Below are positions 15,716 to 61,726 of a DNA stretch of 64,000 nt, piece after piece; positions within the stretch are counted from its first letter, which is position 1, and every line of letters begins with the position of its first letter. Made by a program: the position numbers and the translations under genes. Below the pieces are notes generated by a model, which ran no database searches, was not told the DNA's origin, and was given only the letters and a program-made list of their open reading frames with translations. The DNA is taken from the NCBI GenBank assembly GCA_008632985.1, contig QPGO01000100.1, forward strand, positions 114,388 to 178,387, written 5' to 3'. The DNA is from Psammoneis japonica (lineage: Eukaryota).

Positions 15716-15926
15716 TTTGCTTCTTCCTTCGATAGTGTTTACAGTACGTTATAAGCTGCAGCCATTGACAACACTACATAGAGACAACAGTGAACATGTG
15801 TCTGTAACGCGCCGCTCTTGTGGTACTTCTCGTTTCGTTTCTCTCGCCCGCGCAAAATTTTGGAATTTAGCACGATCTATTGTCTATTTGACGTCTTCAC
15901 GCCCGTATGTATGCCAGTATTTCATA

Positions 15927-18021
15927 ATACTACGAATTCGGAAACAATTGCGCGTTTTCCAGCGCGAAGGTCGAATATCGCGCCTGAACCGACGATCGGC
16001 GCTTCGCGCAAAACTCATGTAGAAATACGTAGAAAACATACTAGAGCTAGAACTCCAGAACGGAGAAAATCATCTGAATGGTGCGCGTATCATCACAATG
16101 ATGTTGTTGCGTCCCTTCGTGAGCGTTTCTTACTACCATGCCACCCACAAAGAGACGAAAGCATTGTGTTCCTGCTCAAGCACCTGGAGATACAGTGACT
16201 CATCCGTCTAGTGGTGGCACTAGAGGCTATTCCCAGGCTCAACTTTTTTCCGGAGAGGTTTCTGGAGATGACGCCCGCGCCGACCCATACTCGGCCTTGT
16301 TTGAGCTATTCTTGATCGTTTTTGTTCATTGAAGACATGTCTTTTACTTTTAGGAGGTATAATTGATAGGTGAGACCCTTGGTTTGGTGAGAAACGGAGT
16401 AGTCGTTGTGTAGAAATCAAAAAATGGGTCTTTTCCATTTTTGGGCGGCAAAACCCATACTTTGATGTTATTTCGTTCAATACACCTCCTCTGTTGCCTC
16501 CCATTGCTGTTATCTCTTTATTATAGATACGAAAAGTATCCCCTGTCTTGAGTATGCTGTGTGTATGATCTGTGGCGAGAAATATTGCTCACATTCGTGT
16601 GGTCTCGCATCGGCATTTTGAGACTACCACCGACCCATACTTTGATGTTTATTCGTTCATTTGGTCTCTTTACTCTCACTTCTTTGATCGAATCTTTACT
16701 TTATAGTTCTGGTAGCATCATTCTGCCTTGGAAGCACAATAAATCCAACAAGAAATGCCAAGCAGAGGTTACAGTATGGTTGACGCGTCCACAGACGGAA
16801 AAGCACTGATGTCGCACCGACAAATGCTGACGAAGATAATCGAATTCCTATCGACAATATCGAAGTCGGAAGTACTGGCAACACATCAAACGATTCATCC
16901 TGTGATTCCTCCACTCATGATTTTCTAGTGAACGCGCTGACATTGTAAAACATGAGGATTCGAGTCAGCACTCGACTCTCGGATACACGAACAGCCGAGG
17001 AGCATCATGCTACCAATGAAAATGGGGGAATACTAGCTTCAGATAATAGAAGAATTTGTTAGGTGTCACCATTCTATTTTATGATTCTATTAGCAGTAGT
17101 ATCCAACAGACTAGACTAACGGGAAAAGCGCATTCTCTGCAAGCGAGGAGAAGGCGTCGGCACATGTCGCAGTTGGTTTTATCGATGAATACTTCTTGCC
17201 ACAGCTCGCGCCCACAGCAAATTCAAGACAGAAGGATGCTACCACAACTATAAAGTAAAGATTCGATCAAAGAAGTGAGAGTAAAGAGACCAAATGAACG
17301 AATAAACATTAAAGTATGGGTCGGTGGTAGTCTCAAAATGCCGATGCGAGACCACACGAATGTGAGCAATATTTCTCGCCACAGATCATACACACAGCAT
17401 ACCCAAGACAGGGGATACTTTTCGTATCTGTGATAAAGAGATAACAGCAATGGGAGGCAACAGAGGAGGTGTATTGAACGAAATAACATCAAAGCATGGG
17501 TCGTGACCATTCCTGATTATCCGGTCAATCCAGTCAATGTGACAGTGCAATGTTTCTCACCACAGATCGAATACACAGCATGACCAAGACAGTGAGTACC
17601 TTTCATATCTATAATAGAGAGACACCAGCAATCGCAGGCAACAGAGGAGGTGTTTTTAACGAATAAAGATCAAAGCATGGGTTTTGCCGCTCAAAATTGG
17701 AAAACACCCATTTTTTGATTTCAACACAACGACAACTCCATTTTTCGCCAAACCAAGGGGCTTACCTAACAATCAGACCTCCTAAAAGTAATATCCATGT
17801 CTTCAATGAACGAAAACGATCAAGAACAGCTCAAACAAGGCCGAGTCTGGATCGGCGCTGCGCTATGTAAAAAAAAATCCACGCTCCAGGAAAAAGTCTC
17901 TCTCTAGTATGTTTTCTACGCATTTCTACACAAATCTTGCGCGAAGCTCCGATCGTTGCTTCGGGATGAAAATTTGAGCTTCGCGCACGAAAACGCGCAA
18001 TTGTTTCCGAATTCGTAGTAT
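15927..18021. mobile_element. Non-autonomous foldback-like element with ~0.8-kb imperfect inverted repeats
   Basis: 15927-16730 is largely the reverse complement of 17224-18021 (ends atactacgaattcggaaacaattgcgcg / cgcgcaattgtttccgaattcgtagtat). Spacer 16731-17223. No TSD identified. Confidence 0.8.
17321..17681. repeat. Two diverged ~180-bp tandem units in the right arm
   Basis: Both units end in gcaacagaggaggtgt...tcaaagcatggg; the left arm has one unit. Confidence 0.8.
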
Positions 18022-18200
18022 CTGAAATGTCTTGAAGCCGGTTCGTACATCCACCATGGCGGGCGGACCTTGGTTCCATCAAATCAACTTTGCAGTCATG
18101 TTTGAAAGCGTACGGTAGACCTGCTGGTGCAGTTTTATTGTCACAACTACTTTGGCAAAATTCCTGGCTAATAGAGTGGTTTCTCTTGTGCAAAAACTGT

Positions 18201-45395: not shown

Positions 45396-46718
45396 ATGAA
45401 AAGGCTGCCCTTTAACATCTCCCGAGACAATCGGCCTTCCGAAAGCAAGAGTTACCTTCCTGTGAAAGTTCACGAGTCAGCGGGGGAGAGCTACGAGGAC
45501 GAGAATGAGGAACATCCGGACGACTTTGAAGACGAAGATGCCATTGCCGTTGTACCAGTCTCCTTGTGGACAATGACAGTCACAACAAACCGGATCACTC
45601 AAACAAGACGCTTTTTTCTGACGCTCTTTGTCGCCTTGTCTGTCTTGCTGGTTCTGAAACTTCATCACGACGATGTTCTCTTGTCGAACCAGCAACCGCC
45701 ACCATCGCCGACCAGCAACGAGACCACTGTTTTGTCAACCAAAGATGAACCAACCTCTTCAGCATTTGGAGGGGTAGAGGAAACGACATTTAATGAATAT
45801 TTTTACTACAACCTTTCCTGTCCCTTGGAATGGTCGAAGTATTCTTGCTCTCATCACGGGCACCTCCATCTCGCCGAAGACAGCCTCCAAGAAGCAAGGC
45901 AGCACCAAAATGTTATGGAAGAAATATTTCAGACAGGTCTCCCGCCAAAATCTCGCGTCTTGCTCGTTGGTGACTCGACCATGAGGCAATTGATCATCGC
46001 CATGGGGTGTGTGGCTCTTTCCATTGACCCAGCGGTCGAGTACACGGCGGATTGGCGGCCAAAGTGGCGCTGCCACGGAACGCCTAATTGTGTACAGGGT
46101 GGGCAACATAGCGGATTTGCGCGGGCGTCTCTCCGCTTTCCCAACGGCGCCGAAGTTCACTTTGTACCATTGGGAGGATCGATCAACGGAATTGGAGAGG
46201 AGAAAAACATTGTTCGCAGGTTTTCGAAGCAAGTCGCCGAGGAAGGACGAATAACTTTTGGTCCTAATACTGCATTCCCAATTGAGCCAGACGCGGCCTA
46301 TCTCAATAGATCGGATACCTTAATTCTAAACATTGGGCTGCATAACAGGCTGGGGAGTATCCCGGGCACTTTGAAGGAGCTTGCCGACTTTGCAGACGCC
46401 CTCCGACTCCAGCAGAATCGCCCGAAAATTGTTTACATGACAACCCTCACGCAACACTTTGACACTCCTAATGGCCAGTACAACAAAGCCCTAAAGGGCA
46501 ACGAAGGCGTTTGCTTAACGGAAATCGATGTGAACCCTCGCGCGGAGCTGGAAAGGGAAATTCTGCACGGTCACGTGGATCAACTCGTTGATTACGATGA
46601 TGTCCAGATGGGTAGCTATCACATTGGAGGACGCGATTGCACTCATTACTGTATGCCAGGGCCTCCAGACTACGTGGCGGCCCGACTTATGCAGGCGGCG
46701 CAGCAGCCTCACCCGTAA
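45396..46718 (+). CDS. TBL / PC-esterase family polysaccharide O-acetyltransferase-like protein
   Basis: Type II TM anchor; VLLVGDSTMRQ and DCTHYCMPGPPD motifs. Confidence 0.88.
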   Translation: MKRLPFNISRDNRPSESKSYLPVKVHESAGESYEDENEEHPDDFEDEDAIAVVPVSLWTMTVTTNRITQTRRFFLTLFVALSVLLVLKLHHDDVLLSNQQPPPSPTSNETTVLSTKDEPTSSAFGGVEETTFNEYFYYNLSCPLEWSKYSCSHHGHLHLAEDSLQEARQHQNVMEEIFQTGLPPKSRVLLVGDSTMRQLIIAMGCVALSIDPAVEYTADWRPKWRCHGTPNCVQGGQHSGFARASLRFPNGAEVHFVPLGGSINGIGEEKNIVRRFSKQVAEEGRITFGPNTAFPIEPDAAYLNRSDTLILNIGLHNRLGSIPGTLKELADFADALRLQQNRPKIVYMTTLTQHFDTPNGQYNKALKGNEGVCLTEIDVNPRAELEREILHGHVDQLVDYDDVQMGSYHIGGRDCTHYCMPGPPDYVAARLMQAAQQPHP

Positions 46719-48751: not shown

Positions 48752-49966
48752 ATGACGACATCTGATACATTGCTCCTGTTCTCTCTTCTGGTTGCATTTT
48801 TCCAGTCTTCAGCTTTTACTATTCCAACAAACAATAGACAGGCAAATTCCCATCGATCGTCGGCATTGAACGCCGAGAAACGACCGGTAGTTGTTGTGGG
48901 GAGAGTGGATCATGTTGGCGGTGAACCACTTCAAGTGGTTGGGAGCGCATCGGCAGCCATGGTGGGAGCCGCTTTGGCCTTGAGCGCACGTGACTTGTTA
49001 AAGGGCGATTTGAGACTTCCTACGCAAGAGACGCCACCTCCAGCTCAACCAATAACAATGCTAACATCGATTGATCAGAACGCACCTGCTGCAATTGAAG
49101 ATTCGCTGTATGAATACTTGGAAGAGACTTTGTGGGATTCTCCTGCTCTCCTTGTTCGACGAACACAAAACAAGGAATATCCTGTAATTGCCGATTATGA
49201 AAGCTGTCTCAATCAACGATTCGATAATCAGGCCTGGAACAACCGACCAATTTTACATGTTGTCATGGAAGGAGGAACTGCTGCTGAAGCCCTATTAGAT
49301 CAACAGCTTCGGGATGATGTTTTCTTTTTGGGTATAGAGCCAGTTGTCCCCTTTGAGAATAACGGGGTCGTTTCACCAGAAATGGCGCAACAATGTGGCT
49401 CGATATTGCAGCGCATCCTTGACTTTTACCAGACGGACCAGGAGGCCGCAGCCGTATCCTTGGATTCACCCTTACTTCTCAGCATGTTGCAAGCAAATTG
49501 TTTGCCAAAGTCGTCGACAAACAGGGACTCTTTTGCGGTGCATCCGAGTGGCTCACAGAGAGGGGAGAGTTCTACCGGCCTCCTCGTCGAGTATTTGTAC
49601 GACTATGATAATGCCTTTGGAGGAACGGACCCCCTGTCGTGTCCAACCAACGAGTTTAGTATTCCGGTGCCCTATGAACCATCAAGCAAGAATACTCCCA
49701 GGATGTTGTCAAAGGCGGGAAGCAATGCCGCCGCTGCTGCGTATACAGTTTTGCGAGGTCATGGAATGGAGTCTGTCTTGTCCATGTGTATTGCAGCAAG
49801 TATTGAAGCGTTATTTTGGGAGATGCAGCAACATTCCTCTTTTGAATGTCCTCCTTATACATGGAGTAGCATTGAGAGAGTTGCTACTCTCAGTGAGCAA
49901 GTGCGAGATTACGTACGGGAAGAACAAGTAGTACGGCAAAGGTACATTGAATTCGGCTATAAATAA
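48752..49966 (+). CDS. Hypothetical protein with bipartite plastid-type presequence
   Basis: 404-aa ORF; signal peptide ending SSA-FTIP (ASAFAP-like). Confidence 0.75.
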   Translation: MTTSDTLLLFSLLVAFFQSSAFTIPTNNRQANSHRSSALNAEKRPVVVVGRVDHVGGEPLQVVGSASAAMVGAALALSARDLLKGDLRLPTQETPPPAQPITMLTSIDQNAPAAIEDSLYEYLEETLWDSPALLVRRTQNKEYPVIADYESCLNQRFDNQAWNNRPILHVVMEGGTAAEALLDQQLRDDVFFLGIEPVVPFENNGVVSPEMAQQCGSILQRILDFYQTDQEAAAVSLDSPLLLSMLQANCLPKSSTNRDSFAVHPSGSQRGESSTGLLVEYLYDYDNAFGGTDPLSCPTNEFSIPVPYEPSSKNTPRMLSKAGSNAAAAAYTVLRGHGMESVLSMCIAASIEALFWEMQQHSSFECPPYTWSSIERVATLSEQVRDYVREEQVVRQRYIEFGYK

Positions 49967-50142
49967 CACCTTATTCTTTTGCAATCGTGTGTTGTGATAT
50001 TGTTTGTGCTTTTATTGATTGACTACATGATCACTTCTACAAGGAGAAAACTCCGCGGGGTGATGCCCTCACACCTTTCTTTCACTTCGTTTGGATAATC
50101 AAGCCAAGAACCGTCGAGGAACCAAGCGCTTCTTATTCGCCA

Positions 50143-51126
50143 TCAAACCGACACTTGCGTCGACAAATAGTTGGCCAACTCTTGGTGCCCAGTTGGATTG
50201 GGATGCCAAGCGTCAGTGATTGAACTTGTCTCAAATTCCCACATCCAGCCATCGGGATTCTGAACAAAAAGTTTCGGGTCGATCTCGTGTCCAGCAAAGA
50301 GGCTCATTGTGTCCACAGACTGAAAGGTCGGACCATTAGGGATCGCGTTGGCAGTGGCGACAGCTCGTTCAAAGGTCGCCTTCTGCTCGTCTGCAAAGGT
50401 ACGGTATTCCTTGCGCATATTGATGGCAATGAAAAAGCCAAACAACCAGTCGTTTTTGTCTAGCACAAGGTGCGGGTAGTTGACCATGGCCACTGTGGCT
50501 TGGCTGGACAATTTCGTCGCAAGCTCAGAGAACATGGCATCAAGTTGGTCCTCAACAGCGGGTAAGGTGGCAGTGGCTTCCGCTAGCTCCTTTCTGCAAT
50601 TGCGTGCATTTCGTGTGATGAGGCAGGCTCTGGTCATCTCGGGAAACCCAGCATCATTGCCGCCAACCGAAATGAGCACCAGGTCGGTGGACGCGTCGAC
50701 AGCCTCGATCTGTTTCTTCAAGTACCGAGTGCACAACAAGCCTTCTTTCTCAAACTCTTCATCTTGGTTTTCCGGAGGACAAGAACCAAGAAATGTGTTC
50801 TTCTCTCTGCGATTGGTGATGTCCTCGACTCGTCCATTGTAACAAGCTCGATTGACAAAAGAGTCAGCAGCAGCAAGCGAGTCGGCATGCTGGCTAGCCC
50901 AACCAGTAGGGCTCCGAGCACAGCCACTCGGCCCATCGTAATTTTCCTTTCCAAACTCGTCGCGCGCTCCGGTTCCAGAGGCAAATGAATCGCCAAGTGC
51001 CACCACATTGAGGGCGACCGAGACATGAGGACACAAGAACAACATCGGCATTAACAGTCCCACAGACAGCGATGCGGCTTTCACTGCTTTGATTGCTGAT
51101 GAGACGGTGTTCATAGAGTCTGACAT
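50143..51126 (-). CDS. Secreted SGNH/GDSL hydrolase (SEST-like), copy A
   Basis: ALGDSFASG, NRACYNG, SVGGNDAGF, DAWHPNPTGH; signal peptide. Confidence 0.9.
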   Translation of the reverse strand: MSDSMNTVSSAIKAVKAASLSVGLLMPMLFLCPHVSVALNVVALGDSFASGTGARDEFGKENYDGPSGCARSPTGWASQHADSLAAADSFVNRACYNGRVEDITNRREKNTFLGSCPPENQDEEFEKEGLLCTRYLKKQIEAVDASTDLVLISVGGNDAGFPEMTRACLITRNARNCRKELAEATATLPAVEDQLDAMFSELATKLSSQATVAMVNYPHLVLDKNDWLFGFFIAINMRKEYRTFADEQKATFERAVATANAIPNGPTFQSVDTMSLFAGHEIDPKLFVQNPDGWMWEFETSSITDAWHPNPTGHQELANYLSTQVSV

Positions 51127-51329
51127 GTTGTCAACCGAACAATCTGTGTTTATGTGGCACAATGGGTGCCAATCAATGCAACAAAAGTGGGTTCGATGAA
51201 GCAGCCTCCACCCATGCGGTGATTTATTCCAAAACGTGACGTTGCGTTCCTCACAGTCCGTTGCTTGCGCTTGTTTTTTAGTTTTACTTGCTCGGGTGTG
51301 CACCGTTTAGGCCCTGTAGGATGACGTGG

Positions 51330-54315
51330 CAAGATGTCAAGTTTGTGTGCATTCAGTGTCGCACTTTTCTCCACGCAAAAAGCATGGGTTGACCATGGGA
51401 TTCCCGACGAAGAAGAGCATTCTGTTGGGCTATCTAATTTGCTTCTTATCTTACTTTTCTACATCAGAAGGCATTGGATCAATGAAGCTGACCAACATGG
51501 GGATTTGCAACCTGGTTTTTTCTGCTTTTGGAAAAGTGTCCAGCACCTCTTGCTGACGGGACATGTCATTGCAAAATCAAGGAAGCACAACCCAATCTAG
51601 AGAGTCTTGGGTTCAAGCCTTGGGCAGAAAAGATGAGAGCAATCTTGACAACTTTGACTCAAATCAGAGTGGCAGCAGAGGCGCTGCACATCAAAATCAA
51701 GTCCACACTGCACGGCCAGTTGACTGACATGGGGAAATGGAGGACAGTGTTCCCAAAAGAAGACACGTTGTTGTGCACTGTGTTGCTGATCCATCCCAGC
51801 AGGTTGAGAAACCACTCAAAGAGGCAGGTTCTTTTCAAAGGCTTCTGAAAGTTTTTGGGGTGTGGCTGCACTCACATGACAAACGTCATCGGCGCGAATT
51901 GAGAGGAGAGACATGCAGAGCTGGGGGCTGAAATGCAGGTGGAGCCCCCATGCACTCAGCTGTTTAATCTTCAGAGAGCTGCTGCTGCAAGAAATGAAGG
52001 CAATCCACAATCTGGCAAAACTTGTTGGGGCAGTCCAGAGGCCAAAAAACTGTTTCCTGGTGATTCCAGAGAAGTGAGGAAAATGTGGCGGCAGCTCTGG
52101 AGTGATGCACATCATCAACAGACCACAACAAGTTGGCAAGAAGACACATGAAAGACAGACCAAGGTCATCAATCAATGTGGCAGGGACCAAATCTCTGCA
52201 GCCCTCATGATGCGAACCTTGTGTCACAAAGAAATCTTGCTTTGGGTGGCATTGGCCCAGGCAACAGGCACGCAAGGATGTTGGCAGGAGAGAGGAGGGA
52301 GCTTTGGCAGGCAGAGAAGGAAGGGCAGGAGTCAGAAAAGTTGGAGAGGACAGTCCAAGGTGGCTTTGGGCATGGAAAAAAGCCAAAGAAGAAAGAATGG
52401 AAATGATGGCCAGTGGTCAAAGGGGCAAAGTGTTGGCAAAGGCCATTGAGAGAGGCCAAGGGTTTCAACAATGGCACGGGTGGGATTGTGGGTGTGTGGT
52501 TGGAGAGGGAGCCATTGTGCATTTTGGGGCACACAGAGGCATGGTCATTGAAGGGGTCAAAGGAAGAGTGCAGCTGCAAGGGCAGGGCAAGTGCCAGAGG
52601 TCTGGAGGGTGGCAAGGTGACAGAGCTTGTGAAGGAAAAGAAAGGCAATTTGGAGGGGGAAAAGGCAGCTGCATGGGTGGAAGGAGTGGAGACAGAGCAG
52701 GCTGGCAAGCTGGGGAAAGAGCAGAAGGGGGGTTTTGAAGTTGGGGTGTTGAAGGATGAAAAGGAGAGCAGTCTGATGTGGGGTGTTGCACAGGTGGGCA
52801 CATTGGGCAAGGCCTCAGAGGTGCATTGTGTGGCCAGAAAGAGCAGTGGGAAGCAAGGAGTCAAAGATGGGAGAGCAAAAGAGCCAAAAGACAACATGGA
52901 GGCAGAGGCAAGAGCGGGAGTCAGACAAAGAGGCAAGATGAGCAGAGTGGCTGGGTGGCAAAGAGAAGAGTTGGTCACAAGTGGGGGACACCTCCATGTT
53001 TGGCAAATCAGGAGCAGGGCGGCCAGGAAAGGGAGATGACAAGAAGGAGGAGGGAGGCAACAGCAATGGCTGAGACATCAGCCAAAGCAGCTGATGCCAC
53101 ACCAAGGGAAGCAGAAGGGAGAAGGGCAACAAAAAGAGCTGCAGCAGGGAAGGGGTGGGGTGGGGGGTCACTGTGAGGTGGGAGAGGAAGTGGAGAGAGT
53201 GTGCCCAATGACAGAATCAGCAAAGGGAGAGGCCCTGTGAAAGAGGTTTTGGGTGGGTGTCGGGGGACAGGAGGTTGCAGCAGGCACCAGCAGCAGAAAA
53301 AAAGCAACAGATGCTGGGCCAGAGGGGGTGGAGCAATTGCAGGAGAGTGTGCTTTGGGTTTGCAGGCACCAAGGGCAGCAGAGGTCTTGGGCAAAGAGGT
53401 GGAGGAGGCAGCCTTGGACAAAAGAAAGTTCATGGAAGCAAGTTGCTGACCAAGAATGTGGGCACCAACAGCAAATTCAAGATGTGTGTCAACAGTTGTT
53501 GACAAGACAAGGCATTCTTGGAGAAGGTGGCATCATCATCTGGAGAGAGGGAGTGAGGGGAGTCAGAGATGGAAGCGAAGAGATTTTTGTTTTAAAAAAA
53601 ATTGAGGACAATGCCAAGGGGAGGGCCTGGGTGGGTCAGATGCTCAAGGAACCAAGGCATGACAAAGTGGGGCAGAAAGGCATGGTGTGTTTGTGCACTG
53701 AAGCAATCCAGAGATTGCTGTTTTGTTGAGCTGTTGACCCAGCCCGCAAAGAGGCAGGCCTCAAATGAATCAAAACACTTTGTGAAAAAATGTGAGTGTG
53801 GAGCTTCAATCTTCTTGAGCCACAATGCTCCCCACTCTCCAGGAGCTTTTTGTTGTGTTGCTTGGCATGAAAAATGTGCTTGTTGAGCAACAAACATGGG
53901 CACACATGATTCATGAGAGACGGCGCCACTCAACCGCTCGCAAAACAACGAGTGAGCTCCCCACCAGAATTGCCGCAAGCAAACAAGCTTTTGATTTTGC
54001 CAGCTTTTGCAGCATTGATTCACAATTGTTTTTGGGACAAACACAGAATGTGCATGATCATTGAGATGCCACTCTGCTGGCAAGCAGAAGCTCCCCAGCT
54101 GCTGTGAGCAAGCAACCTTTTGCTTTGGCCAGCTTTGCAATGTTGATCTGCAGCTGTTTCTGTGCCTCCCACTGGGAGAAGACGTTTCTCAACACCAGCA
54201 CCAGCAGCACAGTTTCACCTGGGTGTGCCATGGCCATTGGCAAGAGGGGTTTTTTTTGGGGGAAAAGACTGACGATGACACAACATGCAGTCCCAGCTGT
54301 TGGAGATGGGACTTC
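51330..54315. other. TpA/CpG-depleted spacer X1
   Basis: Converted composition with a purine-rich middle; family not recognised. Confidence 0.9.
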
Positions 54316-54560
54316 AATGCCGCTGCTGCTGCCGCGCACACAGTTTTGCGCGATCATGGAATGGAGTCTGTCTTGTCCATGTGCATTGCTGCAAGTGTTG
54401 AAGCATCATTTTAGGAGATGCAGCAACATTCCTCTTTTGAATGTCCGCCCCATAAATGGAGTAGCATTGAAAGAGTTGCTGCTCTCAGTGAGCAAGTTCG
54501 AGATTACGCACGGGAAGAACAAGTGGTGCGACAAAGGTGCATTGAATTAATTCGGCTGTG
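54316..54560 (+). pseudogene. 3' fragment of the 48752-49966 gene, TA-converted
   Basis: Aligns to 49724-49960 with Y>H/C changes and a TAG stop. Confidence 0.9.
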
Positions 54561-54726
54561 TTACCTTGCTCTGTTGCAATCATGTGCCGCACTTGCTGTT
54601 TTGGTGCTTTTGTTGAATGTGATTACTTCCACAAGGAGAAAACTCCGCGGGGTCGCGCCCCGCACCCTCCTTTTACCTCGTTTGGAATCAAGCCAAGAAG
54701 GGAACCAAGTTCTTCTTTATTCGCTG

Positions 54727-55715
54727 TCAAACAGACAACTGCGTCGACAAATAGTTTGCCAGCTCTCGGTGCCCTGTCGGGTTGGGATGCAAAGCGTTGG
54801 TGATTGGGCTTGTCTCAAATTCCCAGATCCAGCGATCGGGATTCTTAACAAATGGTTTCGGGTCAGTCTCGTGTCCAGCAAAGAGGCTCATTGTGTCCAC
54901 AAACTGAAAGGTGGGACCATTGGGGATCGCATTGGCAGTGGCGACAGCTCGTTCAAAGGTCGCCTTCTGCTTGTCTGCAAAGGTGCGGCATTCCTTGCGC
55001 ACATTGATGGCAATGAAAAAGCCAAACAACCAGTCGTTTTTGTCTGGCACAAGGTGCGGGTGGTTGACCATGGCCACTGTGGCTTGGCTGGACAATTTCG
55101 TCGCAAGCTCAGAGAACATGGCATCAAGTTGGTCCTCAACAGCGGGTAAGGTGGCAGTGGCTTCCGCTAGCTCCTTTCTGCAATTGCGTGCATTTCGTGT
55201 AATGAGGCAGGCTCTGGTCATCTCGGGAAACCCAGCATCATTGCCGCCAACCGAAATGAGCACCAGGTCGGTGGACGCATCGACAGCCTCGATCTGTTTC
55301 TTCAAGCACCGAGTGCACAACAAGCCTTCTTTCTCAAACTCTTCATCTTGGTTTTCCGGAGGACAAGAACCAAGAAATGTGTTCTTCTCTCTGCGATTGG
55401 TGATGTCCTCGACTCGTCCATTGCAACAAGCTCGATTGACAAAAGAGTCAGCAGCAGCAAGCGAGTCGGCATGCTGGCTAGCCCAACCAGTGCCGCAGGG
55501 CTCCGAGCACAGCCACTCGGCCCATCGTAATTTTCCTTTCCAAACTCGTCGCGCGCTCCGGTTCCAGAGGCAAATGAATCGCCAAGTGCCACCACATTGA
55601 GGGCGACCGAGACATGAGGACACAAGAACAACATCGGCATTAACAGTCCCACAGACAGCGATGCGGCTTTCACTGCTTTGATTGCTGATGAGACGGTGTT
55701 CATAGAGTCTGACAT
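54727..55715 (-). pseudogene. SGNH hydrolase copy B (chimera of A and C, frameshifted, TA-converted)
   Basis: 5-bp insertion within 55491-55497; CYNG>CCNG, RYL>RCL, NYP>NHP, EYR>ECR relative to copy A. Confidence 0.92.
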
Positions 55716-55929
55716 GTTGTCAACCGAACAATCTGTGTTTGTGTGGCACAATGGGTGCCAATCAACATGACAAAAGCAGGTTCGATGAAGCAGCCTCCAC
55801 CCATGCGGTGATTTATTCCAAAACGTGACGTTGCGTTCCTCACAGTCCGTTGCTTGCCTGCACGCTTGTTTTTTTGTTTTTCAGTTTTACTTGCTCGGGT
55901 GTGCACCGTTTAGGCCCTGTAGGATGACG

Positions 55930-58909
55930 TGGCAAGATGTCAAGTTTGTGTGCATTCAGTGTCGCACTTTTCTCCACGCAAAAAGCATGGGTTGACCATG
56001 GGATTCCCGACGAAGAAGAGCATTCTGTTGGGCCATCTAATTTGCTTCTTGTCTTACTTTTCTACATCAGAAGGCATTGGATCAATGAAGCTGACCAACG
56101 TGGGGATTTGCAACCTGGTTTTTTCTGCTTTTGATGAAGTGTCCAGGGCCTCTTGCTGATGGGACATGTCATTGCAAAATCAAGGAAGCACAACCCAATC
56201 TAGAGAGTCTTGGGTTCAAGCCTTGGGCAGAAAAGATGAGAGCAATCTTGACAACTTTGACTCAAATCAGAGTGGCAGCAGAGGCGCTGCACATCAAAAT
56301 CAAGTCCACACTGCACGGCCAGTTGACTGACATGGGGAAATGGAGGACAGTGTTCCCAAAAGAAGACACGTTGTTGTGCACTGTGTTGCTGATCCATCCC
56401 AGCAGGTTGAGAAACCACTCAAAGAGGCAGGTTCTTTTCAAAGGCTTCTGAAAGTTTTTGGGGTGTGGCTGCACTCACATTGCAAACGTCGTCGGCGCGA
56501 GTTGAGAGGAGAGATGCAGAGCTGGGGGCTGAAATGCAGGTGGAGCCCCCATGCACTCAGCTGTTTAATCTTCAGAGAGCTGCTGCTGCAAGAAATGAAG
56601 GCAATCCACAATCTGGCAAAACTTGTTGGGGCAGTCCAGAGGCCAAAAAACTGTTTCCTGGTGATTCCAGAGAAGTGAGGAAAATGTGGCGGCAGCTCTG
56701 GAGTGATGCACATCATCAACAGACCACAACAAGTTGGCAAGAAGACACATGAAAGACAGACCAAGGTCATCAATCAATGTGGCAGGGACCAAATCTCTGC
56801 AGCCCTCATGATGCGAACCTTGTGTCACAAAGAAATCTTGCTTTGGGCGGCATTGGCCCAGGCAACAGGCACGCAAGGATGTTGGCAGGAGAGAGGAGGG
56901 AGCTTTGGCAGGCAGAGAAGGAAGGGCAGGAGTCAGAAAAGTTGGAGAGGACAGTCCAAGGTGGCTTTGGGCATGGAAAAAAGCCAAAGAAGAAAGAATG
57001 GAAATGATGGCCAGTGGTCAAAGGGGCAAAGTGTTGGCAAAGGCCATTGAGGGAGGCCAAGGGTTTCAACAATGGCACGGGTGGGATTGTGGGTGTGTGG
57101 CTGGAGAGGGAGCCATTGTGCATTTTGGGGCACACAGAGGCGTGGTCATTGAAGGGGTCAAAGGAAGAGTGCAGCTGCAAGGGCAGGGCAAGTGCCAGAG
57201 GTCTGGAGGGTGGCAAGGGTGACAGAGCTTGTGAAGGAAAAGAAAGGCAATTTGGAGGGGGAAAAGGCAGCTGCATGGGTGGAAGGAGTGGAGACAGAGC
57301 AGGCTGGCAAGCTGGGGAAAGAGCAGAAGGGGGGTTTTGAAGTTGGGATGTTGAAGGATGAAAAGGAGAGCAGTCTGATGTGGGGTGTTGCACAGGTGGG
57401 CACATTGGGCAAGGCCTCAGAGGTGCACTGTGTGGCCAGAAAGAGCAGTGGGAAGCAAGGAGTCAAAGATGGGAGAGCAAAAGAGCCAAAAGACAACATG
57501 GAGGCAGAGGCAAGAGTGGGAGTCAGACAAAGAGGCAAGATGAGCAGAGTGGCTGGGTGGCAAAGAGAAGAGTTGGTCACAAGTGGGGGACACCTCCATG
57601 TTTGGCAAATCAGGAGCAGGGCGGCCAGGAAAGGGAGATGACAAGAAGGAGGAGGGAGGCAACAGCAATGGCTGAGACATCAGCCAAAGCAGCTGGTGCC
57701 ACACCAAGGGAAGCAGAAGGGAGAAGGGCAACAAAAAGAGCTGCAGCAGGGAAGGGGTGGGGTGGGGGGTCATTGTGAGGTGGGAGAGGAAGTGGAGAGA
57801 GTGTGCCCAATGACAGAATCAGCAAAGGGAGAGGCCCTGTGAAAGAGGTTTTGGGTGGGTGTCGGGGGACAGGAGGTTGCAGCAGGCACCAGCAGCAGAA
57901 AGAAAGCAACAGATGCTGGGCCAGAGGGGGTGGAGCAATTGCAGGAGAGTGTGCTTTGGGTTTGCAGGCACCAAGGGCAGCAGATGGGCAAAGAGGTGGA
58001 GGAGGCAGCCTTGGACAAAAGGAAGTTCATGGAAGCAAGTTGCTGACCAAGAATGTGGGTGCCAACAGCAAACCCAAGATGTGTGTCAACAGTTGTTGAC
58101 AAGACAAGGCATTCTTGGAGAAGGTGGCATCATCATCTGGAGAGAGGGAGTGAGGGGAGTCAGAGATGGAAGTGAAGAGATTTTTGTTTTAAAAAAATTT
58201 GAGGACAATGCCAAGGGGAGGGCCTGGGTGGGTCAGATGCTCAAGGAACCAAGGCATGACAAAGTGGGGCAGAAAGGCATGGTGTGTTTGTGCACTGAAG
58301 CAATCCAGAGATTGCTGTTTTGTTGAGCTGTTGACCCAGCCCGCAAAGAGGCAGGCCTCAAATGAATCAAAACACTTTGTGAAAAAATGTGAGTGTGGAG
58401 CTTCAATCTTCTTGAGCCACAATGCTCCCCACTCTCCAGGAGCTTTTTGTTGTGTTGCTTGGCATGAAAAATGTGCTTGTTGAGCAACAAACATGGGCGC
58501 ACATGATTCATGAGAGACGGCACCACTCAACCGCTCGCAAAACAACGAGCGAGCTCCCCACCAGAATTGCCGCAAGCAAACAAGCTTTTGATTTTGCCAG
58601 CTTTTGCAGCATTGATTCACAATTGTTTTTGGGACAAACACAGAATGTGCATGATCATTGAGATGCCACTCTGCTGGCAAGCAGAAGCTCCCCAGCTGCT
58701 GTGAGCAAGCAACCTTTTGCTTTGGCCAGCTTTGCAATGTTGATCTGCAGCTGTTTCTGTGCCTCCCACTGGGAGAAGACGTTTCTCAACACCAGCACCA
58801 GCAGCACAGTTTCACCTGGGTGTGCCATGGCCATTGGCAAGAGGGTTTTTTTTGGGGAAAAGACTGACGACGACACAACATGCAGTCCCAGCTGTTGGAG
58901 ATGGGACTT
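55930..58909. other. TpA/CpG-depleted spacer X2 (duplicate of X1)
   Basis: Near-identical to 51330-54315. Confidence 0.92.
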
Positions 58910-59165
58910 CAATGCCGCTGCTGCTGCCGCGCACACAGTTTTGCGCGGTCATGGAATGGAGTCTGTCTTGTCCATGTGTATTGCTGCAAGTGTTGAAGCG
59001 TTATTTTGGGAGATGCAGCAACATTCCTCTTTTGAATGTCCGCCCTATAAATGGAGTAGCATTGAAAGAGTTGCTACTCTCAGTGAACAAGTGCGAGATT
59101 ACGTAGGGCCCTACGGGAAGAACAAGTAGTACGACAAAGGTACATTGAATTAATTCGGCTATATT
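58910..59165 (+). pseudogene. 3' fragment of the 48752-49966 gene
   Basis: Aligns to 49724-49960; 8-bp insertion within 59104-59113. Confidence 0.9.
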
Positions 59166-59329
59166 ACCTTACTCTGTTGCAATCATGTACCGCACTTGCT
59201 GTTTTGGTGCTTTTATTGAATATGATTACTTCCACAAGGAGAAAACTCCGCGGGGTCGCGCCCCGCACCCTCCTTTTACCTCGTTTGGAATCAAGCCAAG
59301 AAGGGAACCAAGTTCTTCTTTATTCGCTG

Positions 59330-60310
59330 TCAAACAGACAACTGCGTCGACAAATAGTTTGCCAGCTCTCGGTGCCCAGTCGGGTTGGGATGCAAAGCGT
59401 CGGTAATTGGGCTTGTCTCAAATTCCCAGATCCAGCGATCGGGATTCTTAACAAATGGTTTCGGGTCAGTCTCGTGTCCAGCAAAGAGGCTCATTGTGTC
59501 CACGAACTGAAAGGTGGGACCATTGGGGATCGCATTGGCAGTGGCGACGGCTCGTTCAAAGGCCGCCTTCTGCTCGTCTTCAAAGGCGCGGTATTCCTTG
59601 GGCATGTTGATGCCAATAAAAAAGCCAAACAACCAGTAGTTTTTGTCTTGCACTTGGTGCGGGTAGTGGACCATGGCCACTCTGGCTTGGCTGGACAGTC
59701 TCGTCGCAAGCTCAGAAAACATGGCATCAAGTTGGTCCTCGACAGCGGGTAAGGTGGCGGTGGCTTCCACTAGCTCATTTCTACATTTGTGCGCATTCCG
59801 TGTAATGAGGCAGGCGGTGGATATCTCGACAAACCCGGCATCAATGCCGCCAACCGAAATGAGCACCAAGTCGGTAGACGCGTCAACAGCCTCAATCTGT
59901 TTCTTCAAGTACCGAGTGCAGAACAGGTCTTCTTTCTCAAACTCTTCATCTTGATTGTCAGGAGGACAAGAACCAAGAAACTTGTTCTTCGCTCTGCGAT
60001 TGGTAATGTCCTTGACTCGTCCATTGGAACAAGCTCGATTGACAAAAGAGTCAGCAGCAAGCGATTCGGCATACTGGCTAGCCCAACCAGTAGGGCTCCT
60101 AGAACAGCCACTCGGCCCATCGTAATTTTCCTTGCCAAACTCGTCGCGCGCTCCGGTTCCAGAGGCAAATGAATCGCCAAGTACCACCACATTGAGAGCT
60201 TCCGAGACTTGAACACAGAATAACAATAACAGCAGCATCAATAGCCCCACAGACAGCGATGCGGCTTTCATAGTTTTGATTGGCGAGACTGTGAACATAG
60301 AGTCTGACAT
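59330..60310 (-). CDS. Secreted SGNH/GDSL hydrolase, copy C
   Basis: Intact ORF; GDSFASG and DALHPNPTGH; block III reads GGID rather than GGND. Confidence 0.88.
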   Translation of the reverse strand: MSDSMFTVSPIKTMKAASLSVGLLMLLLLLFCVQVSEALNVVVLGDSFASGTGARDEFGKENYDGPSGCSRSPTGWASQYAESLAADSFVNRACSNGRVKDITNRRAKNKFLGSCPPDNQDEEFEKEDLFCTRYLKKQIEAVDASTDLVLISVGGIDAGFVEISTACLITRNAHKCRNELVEATATLPAVEDQLDAMFSELATRLSSQARVAMVHYPHQVQDKNYWLFGFFIGINMPKEYRAFEDEQKAAFERAVATANAIPNGPTFQFVDTMSLFAGHETDPKPFVKNPDRWIWEFETSPITDALHPNPTGHRELANYLSTQLSV

Positions 60311-60555
60311 ACTGCCAACCGAACACACTGTGTGAGTGAGACAATGGGTGCCAATCAAAAACAAAAACAGGTGCGGGGGTGAATAAGCGCCGCGCCCTCG
60401 TGCTTCCAACTTCCAAGCGCTCCAAGTTTTTTGCGTGGTTGACAGATAACTCTGAAGAAACAGATCCGGCCGGCCGGCCGGCCGGGCGGGCGGCTTCGGG
60501 CGGACGACGTCGAGCGAGCGACCACATCTTCTACTCTCTAGCTCTACAGTAGCTA

Positions 60556-61280
60556 GAAAGCAGATGAGGGAAAGCTTGGTGTCTCCTTTGCCAGTTCTCT
60601 GCCAAGAATCACCAAAGTGTCGGAGTCGTCAAGCCACGTCGGTCTCATCGAGAAATCAGAAACTGTCACTGGCTTGATCATTCCTGGAGTGATCAAGATT
60701 TGTGGCTTTGGAACATCCCAGCTGCTGTCTCTGCCAAAAACCCACTCAGCTGTTGAAGGGAAGGTCCTGCTTGTTTCCAGCTTGGGCGGAACAGAATCTG
60801 AAGAATCTGGTGGTTGCGGATCGCACATTGTTCTCAAGAAGACATGGAAGGTCAAAGAGTGCCAAGTCGCAACTGAAAAGAGCTTTTCATTTCATGGTCC
60901 AGTGCCCTCGAGCCTCATCCAAGTTGTCAACGAAAATCTCGCAATGATCAAGCCAGTGCAAGGCACTGGCACCATCAAGTTCTCACTTGATGATTCTGGC
61001 CACCACCATGCCAACATGATGCACAACTGTCAAAAATGCGTGAGGAAGACGCACTTGTGTGCATCTGTGACACGATGGAAGCTTTGGGACATCAGTGCCT
61101 CCATCAATTTGATTCGGAAACATCATCCACCAAAGTTGTTGGTGGGTTGTCATGCACTGCACGAGAAATGTTTCTCTTCCACAAGGATTGACCATCTAAA
61201 TTCCTGTCACGTGCGTCCAGGCGCATGAGACATTGGACAACATTGTTTTCTGACCATGAATGCATTGGAAGCATCCCAGA
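60556..61280. other. TpA-depleted but CpG-retaining relic
   Basis: No TA seen from 60556 to 61196, while about 17 CG remain (hand count). Confidence 0.8.
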
Positions 61281-61726
61281 CGATAACAAGCCTTTGGCTG
61301 TAGAACAATTGTTACTTTACAATGTCAGATTGTCACGTGCACGTATTGTGAGGTCTATTTAAGCAATGCTTTCAGAGAGAAAGTAAACCAGAGGTCTGAA
61401 GGCAGACGCGTTCAAGGTTGACACAGGAAGAGCATTGTCAGACGATGTCAGAGGTTGGGGGCACATTCTAGAGTGAAAAGGAAAGGGAAGACTTTGCCAA
61501 GATGGGGAGCGAAGGCGCGTTGATTTTCTAAATTACGAGTATCTTGGCTGCTCCGCGCCTTTTCGTTGACCGTTGTATCTTTGTACTTAGAAGAATCTGA
61601 TTGAAGATCAACATCGACTACCTGTGCGATCCACAAGATTTGTAATTCTGTCCATCATGGACAAGAGAAATAGAGTTGCAATGCGGGCCGATGGCTCTAT
61701 CGACTCTCCTGTATCATAAGAAATCA

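Follow-up and report, generated by a model that had tools for sequence, protein, structure and literature searches.

Position in a converted domain, rather than repeat pairing, as the likely determinant of TpA loss in a chimeric gene copy of Psammoneis japonica

The locus and the question

A window of 64,000 nucleotides from the 91-Mb, 597-contig assembly of the eukaryote Psammoneis japonica (GCA_008632985.1, contig QPGO01000100.1, positions 114,388 to 178,387) consists of ordinary DNA alternating with blocks that lack TA and CG dinucleotides and are enriched in TG and CA. At 49.7-60.4 kb of this window lies a tandem array with a repeated unit of 4.6 kb, in which three copies (A, B and C) of a GDSL/SGNH lipase-like gene alternate with two TA-depleted spacers (X1 and X2) in the order A-X1-B-X2-C. 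The changes TA>TG and TA>CA, here both called conversion, represent a single event, namely A>G after T on either strand. The question raised by this array is why copy B was extensively converted when A and C, from which it is built, were not. We favor, at a probability of roughly 0.63, the explanation that the dead copy B was taken whole into a chromatin domain whose margins are short and graded, with A and C lying outside it or in its margin.

A chimeric copy and its asymmetric loss of TA

Copy B is a chimera of the two other copies: up to position 54931 it matches C at 77 of 81 informative sites, and from 54946 onward it matches A at 85 of 94, the left half thus being of C type and the right half of A type. 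The simplest history of B would be an unequal crossover in an A-X-C array, which provides each half with an identified donor: the left part of C (C-left) and the right part of A (A-right). Every unit of the array begins with a piece of the 3' end of the upstream gene U, and the pieces opening the B and C units derive from the corresponding segment of the intact gene (49723-49966), itself unconverted. Ordinary differences between units, such as the 26 substitutions that separate the two spacers over 2685 bases, may be allelic if the recombining chromosomes were homologues, and would then give no date for the event; however, an allelic origin cannot yield the asymmetry in TA loss, because A-right and B-left would have been on one haplotype and B-right and C-left on the other. 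The nearest other relative of A and C in the genome is a paralog that is only 31-45% identical, and with so distant an outgroup the differences between A and C are unpolarized except in the U fragment.

Compared with its donors, B has converted 25 of the 49 aligned TA sites (16 to TG, 9 to CA and none to any other dinucleotide), three further donor TA sites falling in gaps and outside this count. Since the crossover a single TA conversion has occurred in A (50616) and none in C, and the asymmetry between B and its donors is 25:1 (binomial p=8e-7). Three TG-versus-CA swaps at 51177-51189 (51177, 51179 and 51188) mark places where TA was lost independently in the promoters of A and B; addition of these three double-hit sites and one gap-adjacent site gives an asymmetry of 29:4. 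In the non-coding left part, TA was lost at 14 of 22 sites in B and at none in C (14:0). The gene part of B has just four other substitutions in 1440 aligned bases, and a TA present in B but not in its donor (54412) was probably gained. The loss of CG is slower and runs in the same direction, with six losses in B, one in A and none in C. An earlier note on this DNA, made from the sequence alone, had described B as heavily hit between two converted spacers and A and C as mostly spared in spite of being duplicated; the counts bear out both statements.

The flanking-base rule and the mutated strand

When TA sites are classified by their flanking purines (R) and pyrimidines (Y), the converted fraction in B is 10/10 for RTAY, 14/30 for the mixed class and 1/9 for YTAR, an effect that holds given the distance to the spacers (p<0.0002). 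The same order is seen in the old blocks: across 24.2 kb they have no RTAY at all, where 25.7 kb of background has 315, but about half of their TTAA survive. Conversion follows the rule RTAY > mixed > YTAR. The strand tracks context as well: across 12 converted copies RTAR tends to become CA (39:14) and YTAY to become TG (43:18), which implies that the mutated A prefers a 3' pyrimidine and that a 5' purine raises the rate further. Changes common to A and B can be placed before the crossover only by virtue of their shared strand, since any RTAY in B ends up converted in either case.

Strand-coordinated bursts of mutation were a candidate because 11 TG stand in a row in B (p=0.009). They find no support in the 11 other converted copies (same-strand neighbors 84/155, p=0.18-0.42), and pooling all copies gives 99/179 (p=0.09-0.42).

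The sparing of C, the exposure of A and unequal survival

At the edge of C facing X2, three of the first four TA sites are converted (58932, 58934 and 58991), the RTAY site 58979 among them is kept, and the next 11 sites common with the intact gene U are all kept. The margin at C is therefore less than 100 bp, in agreement with the claim that the C-side fragment is converted only in its first ~90 bp. Six differences with TA in A and TG or CA in C at 59200-60333 are unpolarizable. C is also bracketed, with TA-free DNA about 250 bp past its start (one TA in 60555-61283), and a gene at 45396-46718 that lies between two blocks has median TA use. As both are spared, bracketing by converted blocks is insufficient.

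Copy A had been said to be changed mainly toward X1. The changes quoted for this exist (50888 and 50998), but the 16 candidates identified by comparison with C are spread along the copy, with five at 49967-50083, two at 50217-50430, four at 50595-50688 and five at 50817-51126, and they have no significant bias toward X1 (position test p=0.53, 16 of 29 sites; coding part p=0.30, 11 of 21). The TA differences between A and C amount to 16:9 overall (p=0.23) and are unpolarized. What speaks for the claim is that A looks exposed: it has no RTAY past 50723, its promoter was struck independently, and its synonymous TA use (8/59) is in the lowest 11% of 146 open reading frames (ORFs).

These data bear on the best-surviving alternative, namely that exposure was equal and survival unequal, with bursts hitting any block-near DNA and chromosomes with a damaged A or C being purged. 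In its favor, the dN/dS of 0.28 between A and C indicates purifying selection on both, and 7 of the 10 coding candidates in A are synonymous against about one third expected (p=0.02), compared with 2 of 8 coding-region conversions in B. Nevertheless, none of the 14 sites lost in B has gone from the non-coding DNA of C-left, part of which is a dead gene fragment, so that unequal survival would need bursts that always reached the coding region, and the pooled strand data show no such coordinated bursts. Genes beside blocks are also normal in synonymous TA, at 0.306 for 27 ORFs less than 500 bp from a block versus 0.302 for 90 ORFs at least 2 kb away (p=0.71). Hence, we consider this alternative unlikely.

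A flat profile in B and short ramps at block edges

Once context is controlled for, distance to the spacers adds nothing to conversion in B (p=0.22-0.80; permutation 0.12-0.84; 49 sites), and the effect is still absent when four extra sites are included. Conversion stands at 7/11 for sites 600-1000 bp from either spacer and at 15/26 for those within 300 bp. The profile across the 1.9 kb of B is flat, and with context controlled a gradient inside this copy finds no support.

Block edges were surveyed in four contig stretches that add up to 864 kb of the 91 Mb, in which 57 RTAY-free gaps of at least 2 kb cover 320,493 of 864,000 bases (~37%). From merged blocks of at least 3 kb, 59 clean outer edges with normal DNA outside were retained and other edges dropped. 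Outside the first RTAY the TA density at these edges is flat; inside, mixed-context TA falls off less steeply than would be expected if real background were cut sharply. Simulated edges, in which the ramp is taken to be linear and the rate ratios fixed, come closest to the data at a width of 300-400 bp (deviance 29-30); the deviance is 65-66 without a ramp and 85-109 with one of 1 kb. Across 1000 bootstraps the best width was 0 bp in none, 100 bp in 22, 200 bp in 83, 300 bp in 380, 400 bp in 212, 600 bp in 263 and 1000 bp in 40, and dropping eight broad edges gives a best width of 200 bp. On average, block edges form a short ramp of about 200-600 bp. The loss of CG is graded over ~800 bp inside the edges, which would fit margins that are younger or less methylated.

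In the same sample, the gene end that faces a block core is the 5' end in 31 cases and the 3' end in 15, a twofold excess. The idea that orientation matters, with 3' read-through protecting genes and promoters being exposed, was rejected: the gap to the core is 450 bp for the 15 3'-facing cases and 487 bp for the 31 5'-facing ones (p=0.62), and contrary to this idea RTAY density beside promoters is normal.

The edges and the profile of B together address the earlier reading, by which conversion decays from blocks over ~1 kb or more and two such gradients overlap on B. Its general premise survives in reduced form, as edges are graded and none of the 1000 bootstraps chose a sharp one, but the ramp spans only ~200-600 bp. 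The graded CG loss, the exposed promoter of A and the raw peak of conversion at the X1 end of B likewise favor such a decay. As the cause of the damage to B, however, the gradient fails: this copy is evenly converted, its center as much as its ends. Just 40 of the bootstraps chose a ramp of 1 kb, RTAY density outside the edges is flat, the bracketed genes are spared, and the C edge closes within ~80 bp. The kilobase gradient is accordingly quite unlikely in our estimation.

Repeat status, guidance by sequence and assembly support

TA conversion is independent of repeat status. Where repeats of 95.7-98.9% identity lie outside blocks, TA persists in the two copies alike (conversions 0:0, 1:1 and 1:3, with 21, 20 and 17 sites kept), whereas dispersed pairs with one copy in a block show one-sided conversion (41:0, 19:0 and 18:0). 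With the near-identical partners of the two halves of B, C-left and A-right, spared as well, the earlier preference for position over homology pairing is upheld.

Alternatively, B could have been targeted directly, with no merger of domains, by a signal that recognizes its sequence, such as small RNAs made from an aberrant transcript. Such targeting would suit the uniform conversion of B, and RNA guidance is raised as a possibility for a comparable process by Mettrop et al. (bioRxiv 10.64898/2026.01.13.699255, main text). Yet a guide derived from B would match A-right and C-left at ~97-99%, and both are spared, making this scenario very unlikely.

Mutation triggered by pairing, with leakage, in the manner of repeat-induced point mutation (RIP) is hardly credible, even though the locus is a tandem duplication, its 4.6-kb unit ought to suit RIP perfectly, and graded leakage of RIP is described in fungi (PMC2973834, available text). 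The chemistry is opposite, the paired partners are spared (25:1), both members of 95-99% identical repeats elsewhere still have RTAY, dispersed pairs are one-sided as given above, and the hypermutated region of Bigelowiella natans is reported to be single-copy (bioRxiv 10.64898/2026.01.13.699255, main text).

Public contigs, all from one sample that is possibly the assembly's own source, were compared at 40 of 145 difference rows. One of them is identical to B over 54421-54649 and has a depth of 33 versus ~55-60 for A- and C-type contigs, which hints at B being on one haplotype, depth not being equal to copy number. Loose contig ends at 55911-55919 (~51308-51316 in A) suggest another allele or copy of the promoter with an insertion there. 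That B is an artifact of assembly or polishing, or its asymmetry a haplotype mosaic, has a close to negligible probability: most isolated B alleles are absent from the contigs in the rows compared and all runs derive from that one sample, but isolated variants get dropped by contigs, one contig equals B without difference over the interval given, the depths (96.4 = 33.1+33.2+30.1) suggest the presence of B, of its sister C and of another C allele, both C types keep TA at 54612 and 54619, and an artifact would not follow the same flanking-base rule as the blocks.

A proposed course of events

The engulfment of B by a chromatin domain would involve a mutator that changes A to G in TpA on either strand (TA>TG or TA>CA), fastest at RTAY and slowest at YTAR, and that is active inside silent domains, where CG would also disappear, more slowly. 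The margins of such domains would be short and graded (~200-600 bp), and the domains would normally end at working genes. Unequal crossover would have turned the A-X-C array into A-X1-B-X2-C, and the chimeric B would have lost its frame and probably its expression too, leading to its presumed silencing. The X1 and X2 domains would have merged over B, with all 1.9 kb being converted at one rate; C would have remained outside, with a margin of less than 100 bp, and A in a wider-than-usual margin, its low-level hits being filtered by selection. CG methylation may be the mark of the domain, and transcription or selection its barrier. Adenine deamination would be the natural chemistry for A>G after T, with a TadA/ADAT-type enzyme as a candidate.

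The genome has one TadA-like ORF and several C5 methyltransferase ORFs, but genes of both kinds are widespread and their presence proves nothing. Matches to C5 DNA methyltransferases in four stretches (L116-L119) sit in TA-poor DNA (16-23 TA per 3.5 kb in L116-L118), some with stops; these methyltransferases are probably carried by mobile elements and have themselves been converted. A further stretch (L106, 313-1785, minus strand) codes for a protein in which a deaminase domain is joined to a 2OG-Fe(II) dioxygenase.

Several points weigh against the proposed course. The X1 end of B is its densest part (14/20 converted in 54315-54650), the sole sign of a slope in the raw data, and 49 sites have limited power versus a mild gradient. 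Both A and C are lowish in synonymous TA (11th and 18th percentile), and 8 of the 59 edges, including A's side of X1, show broad partial zones. Coding-labeled bases within 400 bp outside edges have 6.9 RTAY per kb (96 in 13,992) versus 9.3 per kb far from them, a deficit that could be real leakage or a bias of ORF calling in TA-poor DNA. Conversion of B may also have preceded its frameshift. With regard to the enzyme, the 5' purine preference differs from the YAC motif of TadA-derived editors, and TadA/ADAT genes are, to our knowledge, universal, so the presence of one proves nothing.

More tentatively, and with considerable doubt, we raise the possibility that this alga has a natural T-A-Y DNA adenine deaminase recruited by silent, CG-methylated chromatin, whose domains advance up to active genes and swallow non-working copies whole. 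If true, this would be a chromatin-guided A-to-G system that finishes off duplicates and mobile DNA, a chemical mirror of RIP without pairing.

Layout of the array and further observations

Table 1. Features of the array and its surroundings (window coordinates)
Feature	Position	Strand	Remarks
Gene U, intact, 404 aa	48752..49966	+	without a Pfam family or usable Atlas hit
Copy A, intact GDSL/SGNH lipase-like gene, 327 aa	50143..51126	-	
A promoter side, partly converted fringe of X1	51127..51620		no RTAY; mixed-context TA mostly kept
Spacer X1, fully converted	51621..54314		2 TA and 24 CG in 2685 aligned bases
B left half, from C-left	54315..54931		15/25 donor TA converted
Inferred unequal-crossover point, C/A junction	54931..54946		
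B right half and promoter, from A	54946..56223		10/24 donor TA converted
Copy B coding remnant	54727..55715	-	frame broken by a 5-nt insertion, 55492-55496
Spacer X2, tandem copy of X1, fully converted	56224..58909		
C-side edge	58910..58991		3/4 TA sites converted, 58979 kept
C-left non-coding DNA, spared	58992..59329		twin in B lost 14/22 TA (count from 58979)
Copy C, intact GDSL/SGNH lipase-like gene, 326 aa	59330..60310	-	
Relic Y, far side of C	60555..61283		one TA (resistant class); CG partly kept
Domain by most sensitive target	50724..58978		8.26 kb without any RTAY

Six-frame Pfam scans of X1 and relic Y gave no hits (0/12). A DNA search of X1 against its own genome recovered 12 weak distant matches, with ~59% similarity over 1.2 kb to other TA-poor loci; X1 is probably an old dispersed element. 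The transitions between X1 and X2 that follow the exhaustion of TA are skewed, with G/C in X2 at ~17 and G/C in X1 at 6, in an unpolarized comparison; this could be A>G outside the TA context or ordinary decay in X1. Relic Y (~730 bp), a converted stretch, retains many CG and has a single long plus-strand frame. In the gap between it and C, GC-rich CCGG/GCGG units at 60466-60500 and an adjoining TA-rich patch (60532-60555) may be a boundary shielding C.

The frame-breaking insertion in B falls on a former TA site, and C has an 8-nt insertion (59104-59111) that creates a short palindrome beside a TA site; these two cases possibly reflect error-prone repair at targets. Elsewhere in the window, nested inverted repeats at 15919-18028 (up to 278 bp, 97%) keep their TA steps and lie outside any block.

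Comparison with known systems

RIP proceeds in strand-coordinated rounds of mutation, depends on RID and DIM-2 and is premeiotic in timing. The process described here resembles it, as far as the available text of PMC2973834 goes, in being a dinucleotide-specific hypermutation of junk DNA with a short reach into neighbors. Its direction is opposite: RIP changes C to T, mainly CpA to TpA, whereas here TpA is lost and CpA gained. RIP is also triggered by repeats and hits both linked copies; here the partners are spared (25:1), and there is no kilobase gradient. Conceptually, the gradient of the earlier note is modeled on the leakage of RIP.

Among other relevant systems, Phaeodactylum tricornutum has DNMT5-dependent, repressive CG methylation of transposons, for which short-range spreading is suggested (PMC9998398, available text). 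CG-marked domains of this kind would account for the disappearance of CG alongside TA in P. japonica, although that text describes no TA mutation. In nine methyltransferase ORF stretches scanned, C5 methyltransferase domains were found, an SNF2 domain was not, and DNMT5 was not identified. Relative to the spreading of heterochromatin or methylation, the edges studied here have a short ramp on average, with none in B and none in neighboring genes as a class. The TadA-derived adenine base editor ABE3.1 prefers YAC (PMC12703980, available text). The likeness is partial: A>G on DNA and the favoring of a 5' T and a 3' pyrimidine are shared, but such editors are engineered and guide-directed, and in the present case conversion requires the 5' T and is faster with a purine two positions upstream of the A. 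We found no paper on TA loss in diatoms (from titles and the starts of abstracts), nor one on TpA A-to-G adenine deamination of algal genomic DNA, most subscription journals being outside the coverage of either search.

The closest parallel is the TpA hypermutation of integrated NCLDV (nucleocytoplasmic large DNA virus) and virophage DNA in B. natans, described in the main text of Mettrop et al. (bioRxiv 10.64898/2026.01.13.699255). There, TpA becomes TpG or CpA on either strand in a regional and copy-number-independent manner, the main region being single-copy and silent; an adenine deaminase is proposed, RNA guidance or epigenetic marks are suggested for targeting, and a ~1000-fold raised rate per generation was measured in culture, active in some lines only. 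As in that system, the changes in P. japonica are confined to TpA, are A:T>G:C and affect both strands (25/25 to TG or CA in B), are localized in regions with TpA depletion and an excess of CpA and TpG, and need no repeat partner, as seen from the spared partners and the one-sided pairs. Unlike the viral target in B. natans, the target here is a dead copy of a host lipase-like gene together with spacer DNA without a Pfam match, RTAY-free gaps make up ~37% of the 864 kb, and CG loss is coupled to that of TA. The flanking-base rule and the edge width are measured here, the words spread, border, context and diatom not occurring in that main text; conversely, the rate in B. natans was measured in culture, whereas for P. 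japonica the footprint alone is read from sequence.

The present process works like the B. natans hypermutation but on a host gene copy. For the choice of targets by a TpA mutator the sole paper, in its main text, offers RNA guidance or epigenetic marks as guesses. The array is in this regard a natural experiment with its own controls, since the same two sequences are present inside (B) and outside (A and C) the domain; it excludes repeat pairing as the trigger and caps leakage at a few hundred bases. An enzyme proposed for the process would have to show the order RTAY > mixed > YTAR, and T-A-Y on the strand that mutates. Should an enzyme be responsible, gene duplicates would owe their fate to a naturally occurring A-to-G editor of DNA.

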